The translations under genes and the position numbers were made by a program. The notes beneath the pieces are model-generated. The model saw only the letters and a list, made by a program, of their open reading frames with translations, made no database searches and was not told the origin of the DNA. A stretch of 32,528 bases of DNA from Anaerolineales bacterium. Its GTDB lineage: Bacteria; Chloroflexota; Anaerolineae; B4-G1; DUEL01. Where the stretch lies: assembly GCA_015662065.1 (NCBI GenBank), contig DQUX01000240.1, forward strand, positions 1 through 32,528, given 5' to 3'. Below, one piece after another: positions 5,647 to 27,624 of this stretch. Positions within the stretch are counted from its first letter, which is position 1. The number at the start of each line of letters is the position of its first letter.

Positions 5647-6519
5647 ATGGCTATTCTAGTGGACAAGAACACCCGCCTCGTCGTCCAGGGCATCACCGGG
5701 CGCGAGGGGGAGTTTCATTCACGGCAGATGTTGGAGTACGGCACACAGGTGGTGGCCGGGGTGACCCCCGGCAAGGGCGGCCAGACCGCCTGCGACGGCC
5801 GGGTGCCGGTGTTCGACACGGTGCGGGAGGCGGTGGAAGCGACCGGGGCCAACAGCTCCGTAGTCTATGTACCGGCCCGCTTCGCACCAGACGCCATCCT
5901 GGAGGCGGCCGACGCCGGGGTGGACCTCATCGTCTGCATCACCGAGGGGATCCCGGTTATGGACATGATCCGGGTGAAGGCGTATCTCGATCAGAAGGGA
6001 GCCCGGCTGGTCGGCCCCAACTGCCCCGGCCTTCTGACCCCCGGTGAGGCGAAGGTAGGCATCATGCCGGGTCATATCGCCACGCCGGGCCCGGTAGGGG
6101 TCGTCTCCCGCTCCGGCACGCTGACCTACGAGGTGGTCTACGCGCTGACGGCGCGGGGGATGGGGCAGACGACCTGCGTGGGCATCGGCGGCGATCCCAT
6201 CATCGGCACCCGCTTCGTGGATGTCCTGGAGATGTTCGAGGCGGACCCGAAGACGGAGCGGGTGGTGATGATCGGCGAGATCGGCGGCAATGATGAGGAA
6301 ATCGCGGCGCGGTTCATCGCCGAGCGGATGACCAAGCCGGTGGTGGCCTTCATCGCCGGGCAGACCGCGCCGCCGGGCAAGCGGATGGGCCACGCGGGGG
6401 CGATCATCGAGGGAGGCGAGGGCACCGCCGCGGGAAAGATCGCCGCGCTGGAAGCGGTGGGCGTGCAGGTGGCCGAGCACCCCGAACAGGTCGCGGAGCT
6501 GGTGGCGACCGCCGGCTAG
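5647..6519 (+). CDS. sucD: Succinyl-CoA synthetase alpha subunit
   Basis: 290 aa: [21 protein letters not shown]..., [16 protein letters not shown], and the phosphohistidine loop GHAGAII. AGGAG lies upstream of the ATG. Confidence 0.95.
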
Positions 6520-6541
6520 CCCTCGCCCCATCCCATTGAGT

Positions 6542-6565
6542 AGGGGCGCAGCATGCTGCGCCCCT
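6542..6565. terminator. Perfect 24-nt GC-rich palindrome between convergent genes (bidirectional terminator candidate)
   Basis: aggggcgcagca|tgctgcgcccct lies 23 nt after the sucD stop and abuts the stop codon of the convergent GNAT gene. No clear U-tract on either side. Confidence 0.6.
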
Positions 6566-7682
6566 ACAGCCTCCGCTCGTAGATTCGGTGCGCCTTGTAG
6601 AAATCCGCCCCCAGCGCCTCCAATTCCTGCATCATCTTCGTGTTCTGCTCGTTGATCTGCACCAGGTCGGCGTGGAGAAAACCCCGCTCTTTAAACGTCT
6701 TGAACATCTCATAGTAGAGAACAGCGTTCGCGCCCAGCCCCCGGTACTGGGGGAGGATCCCCGCCCCGTTGAAGTTGATCCAGCGGGTGCGGCGAAACTC
6801 CCACAGAAGCAGCGCCCAACCGAAGGGATAGAGCCGCCCCTTACAGCGCCGCAGCGCCGCCGACACATCGGGGAAGCCCAGCAGGAAGCCGACGATCTGC
6901 TCCCCCTTGGCGACGACCTTGACCAGGTCCGGCCGGGTCAGCGAAATGAGGCGGTCGGCGACCTTTACCGCATCCTCGCCGGTGATGGGCACGAAGTCCC
7001 GGTTCTCCACAAAGGCAGCGTTGTATGCTTCAATCACGCGGGGGGCGATCGCCCGTAACTCGTCCTTGGTGCGGAAGCGAAGCACCTTAAACCCCCGTCG
7101 CTCTTTCACCTTCTCTGCAATGCGGCGGAACCGCTCCGGGAGCTGAATGTCGCCGGGCAGATAACAGGATAAGTAGTCGGTCTGTTTCCGGAACCCCGCG
7201 TCCCGGATAAAACCGTCGTAGTAGGCGTAGTTGTAGGCGACCCCCATCGCCGGGCGATGCTCAAAGCCCTCAACCAACGCCCCCAGCGCATCCCCGGCGG
7301 CGAACCCCTCGGGGCCGCTCATCTCCCCCAATCCCCGGCTCCGGGCCCAATCGAAAGCGGCGGCGAATAGAGCGCGGGCGACCTCGATATCCTCTACCGC
7401 CTCGAAAAGGTAGAAAAACGCCCCCCGCCTGCCCCGGTAAGCGTTCCGCTTGCGCGGCTCCAGGACGGCGATCCGTCCGACCACCTTGCCCCCCTGGAGG
7501 GCCAGGAAGAAATCGGCATCGGAATGGCTGTAGAAGAAGTGGCGCTCCCGGTCCAACTGCTTCCGCGCGCTGGAGACCAGCGGTGGGACCCACTGGGGGC
7601 AATCCCGGTACAGCCGGAAGGGGAACTGGACAAACCGCTCCACATCGCGGGGGTCGCTCGTATCTACCTTATGGATCTCCAT
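6564..7682 (-). CDS. GNAT-superfamily N-acyltransferase-like protein (two-domain, ~370 aa type)
   Basis: 372 aa. C-terminal GNAT motif-A-like GILPQYRGLGANAVLYYEM. The N-terminal FPFRLYRDCPQWVPPL segment is typical of a conserved uncharacterised GNAT family. ATG is preceded by GGGAGGAAG. Confidence 0.6.
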   Translation of the reverse strand: MEIHKVDTSDPRDVERFVQFPFRLYRDCPQWVPPLVSSARKQLDRERHFFYSHSDADFFLALQGGKVVGRIAVLEPRKRNAYRGRRGAFFYLFEAVEDIEVARALFAAAFDWARSRGLGEMSGPEGFAAGDALGALVEGFEHRPAMGVAYNYAYYDGFIRDAGFRKQTDYLSCYLPGDIQLPERFRRIAEKVKERRGFKVLRFRTKDELRAIAPRVIEAYNAAFVENRDFVPITGEDAVKVADRLISLTRPDLVKVVAKGEQIVGFLLGFPDVSAALRRCKGRLYPFGWALLLWEFRRTRWINFNGAGILPQYRGLGANAVLYYEMFKTFKERGFLHADLVQINEQNTKMMQELEALGADFYKAHRIYERRL

Positions 7683-15308: not shown

Positions 15309-16481
15309 ATGCCACACTTTCGCACCGAGGCGGAGAGGCTACGGGATCGACTGATCGCCTGGCGGCGGGATTTCCACATGCACCCAGAGCTGGCCTTCGA
15401 GGAGCAGCGGACCGCCGGGATCGTCGTCGAGCACCTGGAACGGCTGGGGTACCGGGTGAGGAGGGGAATCGCAAAGACGGGCGTGATCGGCGTCCTGGAG
15501 GGAGGCAGGCCCGGCCCGGTGGTGATGTTTCGCTTCGATATGGATGGGCTGCCGGTCACCGAGGAGACCGGGGCCGAGTACGCTTCCCGGGTGCCGGGAC
15601 GGATGCACGCCTGCGGCCACGACGGCCACGTGGCTCTGGGAATGGGGCTGGCGGAACTGCTGGCTGCTCGACGAGAAGAGATGGCCGGCACAGCCGCGCT
15701 GCTCTTCCAGCCCGCCGAGGAGGGGGGCAATGGGGCCGAAGTGATGGTCCAGGAGGGGGCGCTGGAGAACCCCCGACCCGACGTCTTCCTGGCCACCCAC
15801 GTCTGGATCGAGAAGCCGGTGGGGACGGTGGACGTGAGCCCCGGCCCGGTGATGGCGGCGGCGGAGAAGTGGACCTGCACCATCCACGGGCAGGGCGGCC
15901 ACGGCGCCCTCCCTCAGCAGGCAGTGGACCCCATCGTGGCCGCCGCCTATGTGGTGACCGGTCTGCAGACGGTGGTGAGCCGCAACGTGAACCCGCTGGA
16001 CACGGCGGTGGTGAGCGTCGGATCGATCCACGGGGGCGATGCCTTCAACGTTATCCCTCCAGAGGTGCAAATGACCGGCACCATCCGCACCTACCAGCCG
16101 GCCACCCGAGAAACTGTCCTGCAGCGGGTGCGAGAGGTGATCGATGGGGTGGCGACCGCCTGCGGAGCCCACGCCGAGCTGGAGATCACCCCGCTCACCC
16201 CCCCTGTGATCAACGACCCGGAGGTCGTCGAAGTGGTCCGTCGGGCAGCGGAAGCGGTGGTCGGTCCGGAGCAGGTTGGGTCCGGCGAGCGGACGATGGG
16301 CAGCGAGGACGCCGCGTTCTTTATGGAAGAGGTGCCGGGATGCTATTTCTTCCTGGGCGCGGCCAACGCCGAGAGAGGACTGACCGCCCCCCACCATAAC
16401 CCCCGCTTCGACTTCGACGAGGAATCGCTGGTGCTGGGGCTGACGATCCTGGCTGAGGCGGCGGGGGCATACCTGCTGTGA
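15309..16481 (+). CDS. M20D-family amidohydrolase (N-acyl-amino-acid amidohydrolase / hippurate hydrolase-like)
   Basis: 390 aa from the ATG at 15309, after AAGGAGG. Motifs FHMHPELAFEE and HACGHDGH, with a typical dimerisation-domain insert. The track ORF start at 15228 adds 27 non-homologous codons. Confidence 0.9.
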   Translation: MPHFRTEAERLRDRLIAWRRDFHMHPELAFEEQRTAGIVVEHLERLGYRVRRGIAKTGVIGVLEGGRPGPVVMFRFDMDGLPVTEETGAEYASRVPGRMHACGHDGHVALGMGLAELLAARREEMAGTAALLFQPAEEGGNGAEVMVQEGALENPRPDVFLATHVWIEKPVGTVDVSPGPVMAAAEKWTCTIHGQGGHGALPQQAVDPIVAAAYVVTGLQTVVSRNVNPLDTAVVSVGSIHGGDAFNVIPPEVQMTGTIRTYQPATRETVLQRVREVIDGVATACGAHAELEITPLTPPVINDPEVVEVVRRAAEAVVGPEQVGSGERTMGSEDAAFFMEEVPGCYFFLGAANAERGLTAPHHNPRFDFDEESLVLGLTILAEAAGAYLL

Positions 16482-19400
16482 GCTCGATCTCTCCAACCAC
16501 CACGTGGTCGGCCACGGGGGCCCCTCCCTCGCCCACCACCGGCAGTCGCTCCATCGTCGCCAACAGGTAGACGCCGACGATGACCCGGTACCGGCCCGGC
16601 GGGGCCTCTGGCGCGAGGAGGACCTGGTAGGGGTCGGTGATCTCCTGGCCTGGCTTCCACTGAGAAGTGGGTAGGGTCCCCTGCACCGGCCAGCTATCCA
16701 CCTGGCCGTGCAGCCGCCCATCCGGCCCCAGGAGCTGGACGGTGACGGTGTAGTCCTCCTCCATCATCCGTAGCGCTCGCCACCGCAGCGTGACGGGTAG
16801 GACTTCCCCCGGACGAAGCCGCTCCGCCCCCACCGCCGCCGCCACCAGCAGCATGCGACCGTCGAAATCGGCCAGCCCCCCCGGGCTGGGTCCCACCTCC
16901 ACGGCCGCCAGCACGCAACCATCGGTCGGGCGGGCCAACCAGCGACAGCGGGCCCCCCACCCCCTACACCCTACCCGCAGACGATAGGTCCCAGGTACGT
17001 CGGGGGCCGCCAGCCACACCCGGCTCCATGCCACCCCCGGCGCGACCCATCCCTCCGCTCTGCCCACGGCCTGTCCGGCCTCGTCTACCCATTCCAGACG
17101 CACCGCCCCCCCGTCCTCCACGCCCGCCCACGCCAGGTCCACCGCCACCGGGGAGCCGGCGGGGACCGCGGCTGGCAGGTCGTACCCCATCAGCCACGCC
17201 TTCTCCAGGAGTATCTGCACCCGGTGCGGGAGCTCGCCCCCCGGCTCCCCTCCCTCCACCTCCACCTGCGCCAGCCCCCACCAGATATCTCCTCCGTCGG
17301 CAGCCACCCCCTGCTCGGAGAACCGGGGGAAGAGGGCCACCTCCAGGCTGTAGCTCCCCGGCGGAAGCCAGGGGGGGATCGGCACCGGATGGTAGTCGGC
17401 CACCACCGCGCCGGGCGGCCAGCCGTTGGTGGGGTAGTGCCTCCCCACCGGTCGGACGCCGTCGGAGACCCAGGCCACCTCCCCGGCCCCATCCACCAGC
17501 CGTAGCCGCACCTCCAGGTCCTCCCGAGGGACGGCCGCCGCCCGCCAATAGAGAGTCAGGTGATAAAGGGAACGACCCTGGGGGTCCAGTTCCAGATCGA
17601 AGGCCATCAGCTCCACCGGCCCAAGGGTCGCTCCCGCCGTCTCCGCCCCCGGCGGCGGCTCCGCCCGCGGCTCCGTCCCCACCTCCACCAGCGGCCCCAG
17701 CGAGCGGAGGTGGAAGCTCTCCAGGTGGGGCAGGTAGCGGGCCAGGTAGACCGTCTGCCCGGCCGCCAGCCGGGCCGCCAGGTCGGCCCGGTACTCCTCC
17801 TCGGTGAAATGGACCACCAGGTCCAGGTCGGGCCGCAGCCCCTCAACCTGCTGGAGGTAGTAGAGGGGGGCGAACTTCTCCCCGTCGGCCAGGATCGCCG
17901 CGCCCGGCCTGATGGGCAGGCTCAACACGTACCGCCCCCACCGCTCCGCCTCCACCCGCCCGCTCTGATCAACCACCGGAAGATTGAGCCAGATCCGGCT
18001 GAGGGGGAGGAGGGCGAAGAGGGCGATCAGGCAGGAAGAGAGGAGCTTAACCCCGCCCCTGCCACCCTCTCCCCCTCTCCCGGTGGGAGAGGAGGAGGGG
18101 GAAGGGAGAAGGAGTGAGGTCGCCGCCCCTAACGCAGCCGTCCCCACCCCCACCCCCATCCACAGCGCCAGGATGAGGTGGGCTGGCAGCAGGAAGACGG
18201 AGATGTCCGGCACTAGGTAGATCAGCCCGTAAAAGGCATAGGCGAGGAAAGCCAGCCCGCTCACTAGCGCCAGCCGGGGCCGACGCGCCCCGAGCCAGCC
18301 CAGCCCCACCACCGCCAACATGACCCCCACCCAACCGAACGGCTCCAGCAGCATCCGTCCCACGATAGCGTACCGGGTGGGATCGCGCAGGAGCGCCGGT
18401 TGGAGCGCACCGCCGAACTGCTGCCCGGTCACGTAGGCGAGGAACTCCCCCGCCCTCATCCATCGCCCGTCGTGGAGGGCGGGCCAGCGGAGGGGGATGT
18501 AAGCGTAGAGAGACAAGCCCAACAGGAAGAGGAGCCCGCATCCCAACCACCCCCACCACTCCATCCGGGGGCGGGCGAGGAGGAGGATCAGCACCAGTGC
18601 CGGGAAGAGGAGCACCGTCGTCAGGTGGTTGGTGAGGGAGAGGCCCGAGAGGAGGGCCAGCCTCCACACCACCCGCCTCCCCCCCCTGCCCTCCAGTACC
18701 GTCGTCGCCAGCAACAGGAGCCCGGAGACAAAGAGGAGGTTCAGCGCGTAGACCTCCGCCACCACCGTCTGGGACCAGAAGACCCGGGAGAAAGCAAAGG
18801 CAAGAGCGACCAATAGCTGCGACGCACCCCCGACGTCCGTTGCTCTCCCCCTAACTCCCCCTTGGACGATGGCTCTGCGTCGTGCTCCTCCCGATAGGTG
18901 CGTCGCAGCGGCCCTGCCAGCCCGCCCGCCCGGACTGGCGGGCGAAGCGTTTTCACGCCGCCCCCCTTCCGGTGGGTGCATCACGGCGGCCGGATGTTTC
19001 CTTCTAAACGCAAAGAGGGCTCTTTTTATTCCCCTTCGCGGCCTTTGCGACCTTTGCGGTCGGGACGGTGGATCGTCGCCAGGGGCGAACACGCGTCCGA
19101 GAAGCTCATGGAAGAGAACCACCGCCCCCGTCCCAAAGACAGCCGAGGTCATATTCACCCGCCAAGCCACCGAGCCGAAGGGGAGCAGGGAGAAGAGCTT
19201 GCCCAGGAGGATGTAAAGGGGGTAGCCGGTGGGATGGGCGATCCCCAGCGCGGGGGCGACCACCTGGAACTCAAACGTGTCCGCCTCCCCCACCGCCTGC
19301 CCCATCGTCCGCAGGTAGAGGCCGAGGACGACCAGGGCCAGGAGGAGGACAGCCCACCTCCTGCCCGGCCCCCAGGCGAGAAAGAGGGTCAACCCCGCCC

Positions 19401-19671
19401 CCCCTGCCAGCAGCACCAGCCCCATCAGCGGGTCCGGCTGGGGGGAGAGCAGGTAAGCCAGCGGGAGGAGCAGCCCCACCCAAGCCCCGGCCCGGCGGGG
19501 GGCGAGCGCTCGCCAGAGAAGAAGCCCGACCCCACCTCCTGCCAGCGCCATCCCGCCCACGGCCAGAGGAGAGGAGAAGAGAGGGCGCAGGTAGAGGGCC
19601 TCGCCCAGGTAGCGGGCCAGGCCCAGGGACCAGAGGCAGGCAGCCAATATCCAGCGCAGCGCTTTGCTCAT
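16321..19671 (-). CDS. DUF2723 / TMEM260-like GT-C fold glycosyltransferase with three C-terminal beta-sandwich repeat modules
   Basis: 1116 aa from the ATG at 19671 (MSKALRWILAACLW...). Family motifs GEADTFEFQVVAPALGIAHPTGYPLYILLGKLF and FWSQTVVAEVYALNLLF, plus many TM helices. The C-terminal ~430 aa are three related modules (LTLYWRA...PTNGWPPG...PPGSYSL / ...PGTYRLRV / ...LPTSQWKPGQ...PPGRYRVIVGVY). The first 201 codons of the track ORF (to 20274) lie inside the PBP2 gene in another frame and are discarded. Confidence 0.8.
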   Translation of the reverse strand: MSKALRWILAACLWSLGLARYLGEALYLRPLFSSPLAVGGMALAGGGVGLLLWRALAPRRAGAWVGLLLPLAYLLSPQPDPLMGLVLLAGGAGLTLFLAWGPGRRWAVLLLALVVLGLYLRTMGQAVGEADTFEFQVVAPALGIAHPTGYPLYILLGKLFSLLPFGSVAWRVNMTSAVFGTGAVVLFHELLGRVFAPGDDPPSRPQRSQRPRRGIKRALFAFRRKHPAAVMHPPEGGRRENASPASPGGRAGRAAATHLSGGARRRAIVQGGVRGRATDVGGASQLLVALAFAFSRVFWSQTVVAEVYALNLLFVSGLLLLATTVLEGRGGRRVVWRLALLSGLSLTNHLTTVLLFPALVLILLLARPRMEWWGWLGCGLLFLLGLSLYAYIPLRWPALHDGRWMRAGEFLAYVTGQQFGGALQPALLRDPTRYAIVGRMLLEPFGWVGVMLAVVGLGWLGARRPRLALVSGLAFLAYAFYGLIYLVPDISVFLLPAHLILALWMGVGVGTAALGAATSLLLPSPSSSPTGRGGEGGRGGVKLLSSCLIALFALLPLSRIWLNLPVVDQSGRVEAERWGRYVLSLPIRPGAAILADGEKFAPLYYLQQVEGLRPDLDLVVHFTEEEYRADLAARLAAGQTVYLARYLPHLESFHLRSLGPLVEVGTEPRAEPPPGAETAGATLGPVELMAFDLELDPQGRSLYHLTLYWRAAAVPREDLEVRLRLVDGAGEVAWVSDGVRPVGRHYPTNGWPPGAVVADYHPVPIPPWLPPGSYSLEVALFPRFSEQGVAADGGDIWWGLAQVEVEGGEPGGELPHRVQILLEKAWLMGYDLPAAVPAGSPVAVDLAWAGVEDGGAVRLEWVDEAGQAVGRAEGWVAPGVAWSRVWLAAPDVPGTYRLRVGCRGWGARCRWLARPTDGCVLAAVEVGPSPGGLADFDGRMLLVAAAVGAERLRPGEVLPVTLRWRALRMMEEDYTVTVQLLGPDGRLHGQVDSWPVQGTLPTSQWKPGQEITDPYQVLLAPEAPPGRYRVIVGVYLLATMERLPVVGEGGAPVADHVVVGEIELTAGMPPPPQPGSSAPAPAIPRRSRSGGYGGGRSVLSRRWPRPGRNSIPAPLP
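18065..18101. repeat. REP-like 17-bp-stem hairpin inside the DUF2723 coding sequence
   Basis: ccctctccccctctccc-ggt-gggagaggaggaggggg. Of 17 stem positions, one is a mismatch and one is a G:U wobble. It translates as SPSSSPTGRGGEGGRGG between two TM helices. Confidence 0.7.
18816..18909. repeat. Perfect 13-bp inverted repeat with 68-nt spacer inside the DUF2723 coding sequence
   Basis: gctgcgacgcacc (18816-18828) and ggtgcgtcgcagc (18897-18909). A second 8-bp GC hairpin cgcccgcc-cggact-ggcgggcg follows at 18923-18944. Confidence 0.8.
19035..19061. repeat. Three tandem 9-mers TTYGCGRYC inside the DUF2723 coding sequence
   Basis: ttcgcggcc / tttgcgacc / tttgcggtc, next to an AT-rich stretch (ctctttttattcc). 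It translates on the minus strand as RPQ-RSQ-RPR. Confidence 0.8.
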
Positions 19672-19712
19672 CCGCGTCCCCGCTTCCCCGCGTCCCTGCG
19701 CCCCTGCGCCTC

Positions 19713-27594: not shown

Positions 27595-27624
27595 CACCCA
27601 GCACCCAACATCGAGCACCCAGCT

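Follow-up and report, generated by a model that had tools for sequence, protein, structure and literature searches.

An in-frame, non-coding-like insertion in a TMEM260-like glycosyltransferase gene of an Anaerolineales bacterium

Introduction

MITEs, or miniature inverted-repeat transposable elements, occur in multiple related copies, have terminal inverted repeats of ~4–30 bp and a target-site duplication, are shorter than 500 bp, lack a transposase and are typically AT-rich. Repetitive extragenic palindromic (REP) sequences and bacterial interspersed mosaic elements (BIMEs) are imperfect palindromes of 20–40 nt with many extragenic copies and often a GTAG head. Elements of the kind of the Rickettsia palindromic elements (RPEs) are recognised by one conserved peptide that stands in frame in several unrelated genes. 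Here we analyse an in-frame segment within a gene for a TMEM260-like (formerly DUF2723) glycosyltransferase of the GT-C fold. The gene lies on contig DQUX01000240.1 of an Anaerolineales bacterium, and the window in the following means the whole 32,528-nt stretch that was analysed. The original prediction, made from the sequence alone, had described the segment as a MITE/REP-like insertion that is tolerated in a loop of a membrane enzyme.

In-frame intragenic MITEs have been documented, for example the RPEs (reviewed in PMC10969869). The window insert resembles RPEs and intragenic MITEs (ERIC, BOX, QMITE1) in that they are short (~150–400 bp), hairpin-forming, non-genic DNA in frame inside a housekeeping gene, and in that a surface or loop peptide is added while the fold is kept (PMC10969869). 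However, RPEs and MITEs form multi-copy families that have conserved ends and, when young, target-site duplications. The window insert has no second copy in the searched DNA, which comprises the 32.5-kb window and ~150 kb of other loci (including ~45 kb from five related Anaerolineae loci); it also has no target-site duplication and no convincing terminal inverted repeat, and it is not AT-rich overall.

Ordinary insertions and deletions in loops (loop indels) are a second point of comparison; these are typically shorter and codon-adapted. The window insert resembles them in being located at an inter-helix turn that varies in 43% of the homologues, and in being predicted to be disordered, compositionally biased and positively charged on the probable cytoplasmic side. 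It differs from them in its length of +84 aa, which is twice the next largest, and in combining a lack of any codon adaptation with a perfect 13-bp inverted repeat. Compared to TMEM260 itself (PDB 9rql; PF11028), the window protein has the GT-C transmembrane module and the equivalents of residues D52 and H67 in common, whereas the loop in question comprises ~95 residues as opposed to ~11 in TMEM260. Furthermore, the C-terminal region of the bacterial protein is unlike that of TMEM260.

Results

Extent and reality of the insertion

The gene and the insertion have the following positions in the window.

16321–19671, minus strand: TMEM260-like/DUF2723 GT-C glycosyltransferase gene, supported by its open reading frame (ORF), Pfam, a PDB match, the AlphaFold (AF2) fold and synteny.
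18835–19086, minus strand: in-frame lineage-specific insertion of 84 codons, placed by orthologue anchors; the 3' boundary possibly extends to 18819.

To delimit the insertion, we used 94 homologues that allowed both of its flanking anchors (WRVN..S and F/LWSQ) to be located. The anchored segment (WRVN..WSQ) is 132 aa long in the window and 48 aa long in 54 of the 94 homologues (57%); the closest orthologue, P0002 (74% identity), carries the 48-aa short form. The excess in the window is thus +84 aa, or 252 nt (18835–19086). At the identity of P0002 the boundaries are precise to about ±5 codons, and the earlier delimitation of 18819–19086 (89 codons) falls within this range. The insert therefore comprises 84–89 extra codons between transmembrane helices 2 and 3 (TMH2 and TMH3) that are missing from P0002 and most homologues, and in the alignment with TMEM260 it falls into a gap of 11 residues between positions 109 and 121. 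The match to PF11028 is broken into two stretches with the insert between them, which agrees with the prediction of a ~270-nt in-frame segment that splits two DUF2723 blocks. The encoded segment is rich in Arg, Ala, Gly and Pro and includes the peptides ALFAFR and HPAAVMHPPEGGR.

Misassembly is excluded as the source of the segment because an identical protein is encoded by seven contigs that differ in sample and source (JGI, ENA, Logan), and because six contigs that we compared with the window (99.85–100% identity) show no base difference within the gene. Population polymorphism is excluded as well. Another protein at NCBI, HIE37765.1, has a single residue changed, and this lies far from the insert.

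As had been predicted, the reading frame stays open and in phase across the insert. From composition alone, the probability of being stop-free and in phase is ~4.6%, in line with the few percent that had been estimated. However, 39% of all 84-codon frames in the GC-rich window are stop-free; a captured genomic fragment would therefore pass with a chance of ~13%.

Composition of the insert

The strongest result of our analysis is the composition of the segment, which is sharply non-coding-like. As a reference we used 3909 windows of 88 codons from 14 neighbouring genes. The GC content at third codon positions (GC3) is 0.59 in the insert, compared to a minimum of 0.75 and a median of 0.875 in the reference windows. 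The log-likelihood ratio (LLR) of codon usage is −0.70 per codon in the insert and +0.48±0.13 (minimum 0.16) in the in-frame windows. When conditioned on the amino acid, the mean log2 relative synonymous codon usage is −0.63 compared to 0.56±0.14 (z=−8.6), a non-coding character that is stronger than what had been visible by eye. Furthermore, 10 of the 17 Arg codons in the insert are AGA or AGG, which make up 5% of the Arg codons in the neighbouring genes. A profile over 25 codons is coding-like on both flanks and falls only over codons 201–284. From these codon tests we conclude that the DNA does not derive from genic sequence read in whatever frame, and that the codon usage of this genome has not moulded it. 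The overall GC content of the insert equals that of the window (0.67 in both), and the insert is thus not AT-rich overall.

An origin from coding DNA read in another frame or on the other strand was also considered; it is ruled out by a negative codon LLR in all six frames of the insert, the best of which reaches −0.29.

The host enzyme and the position of the insert

The host gene runs on the minus strand from an ATG at 19671 to a stop at 16321 and encodes 1116 aa. Its product matches PF11028 with 110 bits (cutoff 24.2), and a profile of 46 homologues matches the human TMEM260 structure (PDB 9rql) with an E value of 1.7e-36. The AF2 model of residues 1–620 has a mean predicted local distance difference test score (pLDDT) of 84 and a predicted template modelling score of 0.85, and its top structural matches found with Foldseek are the GT-C enzymes ArnT, ALG9/12, STT3, PMT and AftB. 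Residues D131 and H146 are invariant across the 46 homologues and are aligned with D52 and H67 of TMEM260. These two TMEM260 residues are essential and lie on the luminal side, where they are in contact with the mannose donor (10.64898/2026.03.17.711096). With the above-threshold match, the GT-C fold and the outer-loop Asp and His all present, the host is a TMEM260-like GT-C glycosyltransferase. Source annotations assign the organism to the Anaerolineae.

In the AF2 model, TMH2 spans residues 168–195 and TMH3 residues 260–293, and a pLDDT of 38–51 over residues 196–259 indicates predicted disorder. As D131 and H146 align to luminal residues of TMEM260, the loop before TMH2 should be extracytoplasmic. 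By the topology of GT-C enzymes, the TMH2–TMH3 turn and with it the insert would then face the cytoplasm, opposite to the conserved donor-binding residues. The insert contains 19 K+R and 5 D+E (net charge +14), which is consistent with the positive-inside rule.

This turn varies in length across the family. Extra residues (+2 to +42) are found in 40 of the 94 homologues (43%), and the +84 of the window is the largest value. Summed over the loops of these 40 homologues, 137 K+R stand against 61 D+E. The loop inserts are unrelated in sequence between clades and are frequently rich in Arg, Gly, Pro and Ala; a comparison of the window insert with those of P0003, P0068, P0041 and P0004 detected no homology. 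The original prediction had named orthologues with a homologous segment of similar length as evidence that would speak against its reading. This applies in part: orthologues often carry additional residues at precisely this loop, but none of these is homologous to the insert. GC3 is depressed in the +42 insert of P0068 (0.61 vs 0.82), and other loop inserts are without low GC3 (e.g. 0.86 in P0041). Many relatives have thus gained length in this loop independently, and the window insert is the extreme of a family-wide tendency and not a unique type of event.

The P0068 insert (locus L010, 3001–6114) also contains the palindrome GGCGATCGCC, within which lies a HIP1-like core, GCGATCGC.

The GT-C gene is located directly downstream of mreB-mreC-mreD-PBP2. 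In distant Anaerolineae (loci L010 and L011) the gene order is mreC-mreD-PBP2, the GT-C gene and then minC-minD-minE-rodA, and the window and locus L012 are also among the loci where the GT-C gene is found in conserved synteny with the cell-shape cluster. This synteny suggests an uncharacterised role of the GT-C enzyme in the envelope or the elongasome.

Repeats and hairpins in the insert

The DNA of the insert and its junctions contains the following features, none of which is assigned to a strand.

18816–18828: outer arm of a perfect 13-bp inverted repeat (GCTGCGACGCACC), which overlaps the codons for GASQ(L) at the insert/TMH3 junction (shuffle p~0.002).
18897–18909: inner arm of this 13-bp repeat (GGTGCGTCGCAGC), within the insert (predicted long stem).
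18923–18944: 8-bp GC hairpin CGCCCGCC/GGCGGGCG with a 6-nt loop (18923–30/18937–44), from the repeat search.
18878–18991: two 36-nt direct-repeat units (18878–18913 and 18956–18991) that share 72% identity at a distance of 78 nt (26 codons); marginal compared to shuffles.
18991–19030: lowest-GC patch of the gene (GC 0.40) in a scan of 40-mers; read on the plus strand, it resembles a weak hairpin with a T-run behind it.
19033–19058: tandem 9-mer (CCTTTGCGA) of 2.9 copies with 88% identity, that is, units of three codons (6/300 shuffles).
19066–19079: imperfect terminal inverted repeat partner of 18819–18832, complementary at 11 of 14 positions; the only feature of the insert that resembles a terminal inverted repeat, estimated to be about chance (p~0.05).

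Most of these had been predicted. The 13-bp inverted repeat with its 68-nt spacer and the 8-bp hairpin are present at the expected positions, and the AT-rich patch is indeed unique in the gene, where the next lowest 40-mer has a GC content of 0.50. The tandem 9-mers are also present, although they are shifted by 2–3 nt from the predicted 19035–19061 and amount to 2.9 imperfect copies instead of three.

Of 2000 dinucleotide shuffles of the segment, 4 contained a perfect inverted repeat of 13 bp or more, and the 118 other 271-nt tiles of the window contained none. Inverted repeats that reach 12 bp within 150 nt number only four in the whole window. When mismatches are tolerated, the score of the best inverted repeat is equalled by 23 of 300 shuffles and is thus unexceptional. 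The score of the tandem 9-mer, reached in 6 of 300 shuffles, is moderately unusual. The motif GGTGCGTCGCAGC occurs exactly only in its two arms; with two mismatches allowed there are four matches compared to 2.2 expected. The perfect repeat is not terminal, as it covers 94 nt at one end of the insert, and its outer arm overlaps GASQ codons that can be aligned with orthologues. Such a pattern would suit an origin by a local strand switch or inverted duplication no less than it would suit the end of a transposon.

A long stem is predicted in the segment, with folding z-scores of only −1.7 and −1.6. Rfam gave no match for the segment at the gathering threshold (the best relaxed match, with 23 bits and an E value of 0.08, is at chance level), and ARAGORN detected no tRNA. 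A structured RNA or tRNA-derived element was rejected on these grounds. A promoter-like site was looked for in the segment and was not found. From a reading of the sequence, the insert peptide, which begins with APGDD, lacks the junction residues of an intein. The insert thus resembles neither a known structured RNA (Rfam) nor a tRNA-derived element, an intron or an intein.

Search for further copies

Neither the window nor the other loci contained a second copy of the insert, even a partial one, and collections of plasmids, phages and viruses contained no match to it. Read directly, the sequence shows no direct repeat, and with it no target-site duplication, around either of the candidate boundary pairs (18835/19086 and 18819/19079, ±5 codons). 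Searches of genome contigs and of metagenome contigs with the insert peptide each yielded at least 600 candidates for a degenerate pattern, of which none was confirmed and among which the source locus itself was not present. The gapped inverted-repeat pattern had no match in metagenome contigs, a collection that does not include this organism. An 18-mer of the insert had 12 matches in genome contigs; all were seed-only matches of 18–33 nt in unrelated taxa, and the source genome was not among them. With phmmer, the 89-aa peptide had only two matches among 1.84 billion representatives, a set whose 50%-identity clusters could hide inserted variants and which did not return the query itself. These two proteins, P0138 and P0139 (E~2e-4), were rejected as relatives of the peptide; they are repetitive, eukaryote-like proteins that match by chance.

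Among the traits of MITEs, the length of 252–270 nt (<500 bp) and the absence of an ORF with homologues fit the insert, whereas AT-richness does not, and the terminal inverted repeat is limited to the imperfect 11/14 pair (18819–32/19066–79) at about chance level. The insert also does not appear to be a REP or BIME, because the GGTGCGTCGCAGC motif is present only in its two arms, is unrelated to a palindrome at 6540–6567 and is intragenic. The sequence therefore does not appear to support the MITE/REP label, although the remainder of the original interpretation, in-frame non-genic DNA in a loop of a membrane enzyme, is retained.

The palindrome at 6540–6567 is perfect over 28 nt (GTAGGGGCGCAGCATGCTGCGCCCCTAC) and has a REP-like GTAG...CTAC head and tail. 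It lies where two minus-strand ORFs (5719–6531 and 6564–7682) leave a short gap and is unrelated in sequence to the insert.

Discussion

We consider it probable that the short and hypervariable cytoplasmic TMH2–TMH3 turn has been expanded in frame, recently and in a lineage-specific manner, by a segment that was built from non-genic DNA and not from a conserved domain. One or a few non-homologous insertion events would have supplied the DNA. Local duplication or slippage may then have shaped the insert, in units of 9 nt and ~78 nt that are each divisible by three, and the perfect 13-bp inverted repeat may stem from a strand-switch event. Its in-phase, stop-free frame would have let the allele survive, as would its place on the cytoplasmic face, where a floppy loop with positive charge fits the positive-inside rule and is distant from the active site. 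Most likely, the insert is neutral or nearly so. Translation could be slower across its series of rare AGR codons.

Several observations weigh against this expansion from non-genic DNA. A donor locus for the DNA was not found in the searched DNA. The perfect 13-bp inverted repeat (p~0.002) together with the stacked hairpins exceeds what simple slippage predicts and would fit a mobile or structured element, and the internal direct repeats are only marginally above chance (the 36-nt direct repeat with 72% identity is near chance under shuffles). Furthermore, all sequences come from one clonal population, and selection on the insert and its age are therefore not measurable.

The alternatives differ in what they make of these observations. 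The insert might be a small palindromic mobile element (or a composite) like a MITE, REP or RPE that persists because it is in frame. Its length of 252–270 nt within the range of MITEs, its non-coding-like composition, the significant perfect inverted repeat with further hairpins and the imperfect 11/14 inverted repeat at both ends are consistent with such an element; in-frame intragenic MITEs are on record with the RPEs (PMC10969869), and the genome does hold a REP-like GTAG...CTAC palindrome at 6540–6567. Yet the insert is unlike this palindrome, has the GC content of the genome, lacks a further copy in the searched loci as well as a match in the plasmid, phage and viral collections, and has no target-site duplication at either candidate boundary; moreover, the perfect repeat covers just 94 nt at one end, with its outer arm in codons that can be aligned with orthologues. 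We thus regard a mobile element as unlikely. A broader proposal, which we consider more doubtful still, is that the TMH2–TMH3 turn of this elongasome-linked enzyme repeatedly acts as a landing or birth site at which non-genic DNA turns into coding sequence, and that the insert is an undescribed small palindromic mobile element of Anaerolineae that inserts in frame, as a Chloroflexota counterpart of the RPEs.

The segment could also be a functional addition, either a selected cytoplasmic, Arg-rich disordered region (e.g. for docking to the elongasome) or an embedded RNA or antisense element. The location of the gene within the mreBCD-PBP2 cluster, and in relatives between PBP2 and minCDE-rodA, would suit such an addition, as would the stable predicted long stem and the plus-strand hairpin followed by a T-run; in addition, the allele is fixed in all sampled populations. 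A functional addition nevertheless seems improbable, as the codon usage is wholly unadapted, the peptide is unique among the 1.84 billion representatives (with the caveat that 50%-identity clusters may hide variants) and the inserts of other lineages are unrelated in sequence, while the folding z-scores of just −1.7 and −1.6, the absence of an Rfam family at the gathering threshold, with relaxed matches at chance level, and the lack of a promoter-like site argue against it too. An assembly chimera or a recently inactivated pseudogene would explain the abrupt compositional break and the odd C-terminal extension of ~50 aa that overlaps the convergent peptidase gene. We consider this very improbable: the six independently assembled contigs are 99.85–100% identical to the window and without differences in the gene, the ORF of 1116 codons is intact and coding-like on either side of the insert, and the essential donor-binding residues (D131 and H146) are conserved. 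The recently disrupted gene that the original prediction had offered as its alternative is unlikely for the same reasons.

If the insert is indeed an expansion built from non-genic DNA, it would be a clean natural case in which ~250 nt of such DNA are read as protein within a conserved and probably functional membrane enzyme. The cytoplasmic TMH2–TMH3 turn of TMEM260-like GT-C enzymes would then tolerate an insertion of more than 80 residues, which might be of use for tagging or engineering GT-C enzymes and for studying the birth of disordered segments. The phenomenon itself is already known, and a single clonal allele opens no long-standing question; the significance would be greater if Chloroflexota held a family of in-frame palindromic elements.

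Additional repeat-derived sequences in and around the gene

The GT-C gene contains further sequence of unusual composition. At 18001–18112 (codons ~515–545), a second lineage-specific insertion of ~20 aa (LLLPSPSSSPTGRGGEGGRGGVKLLSS) is located in a loop that is variable among orthologues. Its DNA contains three short tandem repeats (9-, 8- and 7-mers), with a codon LLR of −0.31 and a pLDDT of 58–64. At 16321–16480, the protein extends by ~50 aa (TAGMPPPPQPGSS...IPAPLP) past the stop of the orthologues. Over ~160 nt, this C-terminal extension shares its DNA with a convergent M20 peptidase gene, and its composition is strongly non-coding-like (LLR −1.18, GC3 0.40). It looks like the loss of a stop codon or a read-through into the antisense strand of the neighbouring gene.

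Tandem repeats are also found outside the coding sequence of the gene. An octamer repeat (CCGCGTCC, 4.6 copies) at 19672–19708 is located immediately upstream of the GT-C ATG, in the 3' end of PBP2 or a short spacer. Heptamer arrays elsewhere in the window comprise CTCGTTG/CTGGTTG in 10 copies (2748–2817), ACCAGCA in six and CACCCAG in four (others at 1176–1217 and 27595–27623). The array at 2748–2817 is located at the junction of two minus-strand genes, where it is read in frame at the C-terminus of a 512-aa ORF and in the N-terminal extension of a 260-aa ORF. Within the GT-C gene family, tandem DNA repeats appear to be read in frame repeatedly, because translated short-period repeats are also present in orthologues: P0003 begins with MTNEQMTNDGMTNEQ in its N-terminal part, P0035 contains VIGHWSLVIGHWSL and P0041 contains PPPSNLQPPPSTLQSPTSNLQ.

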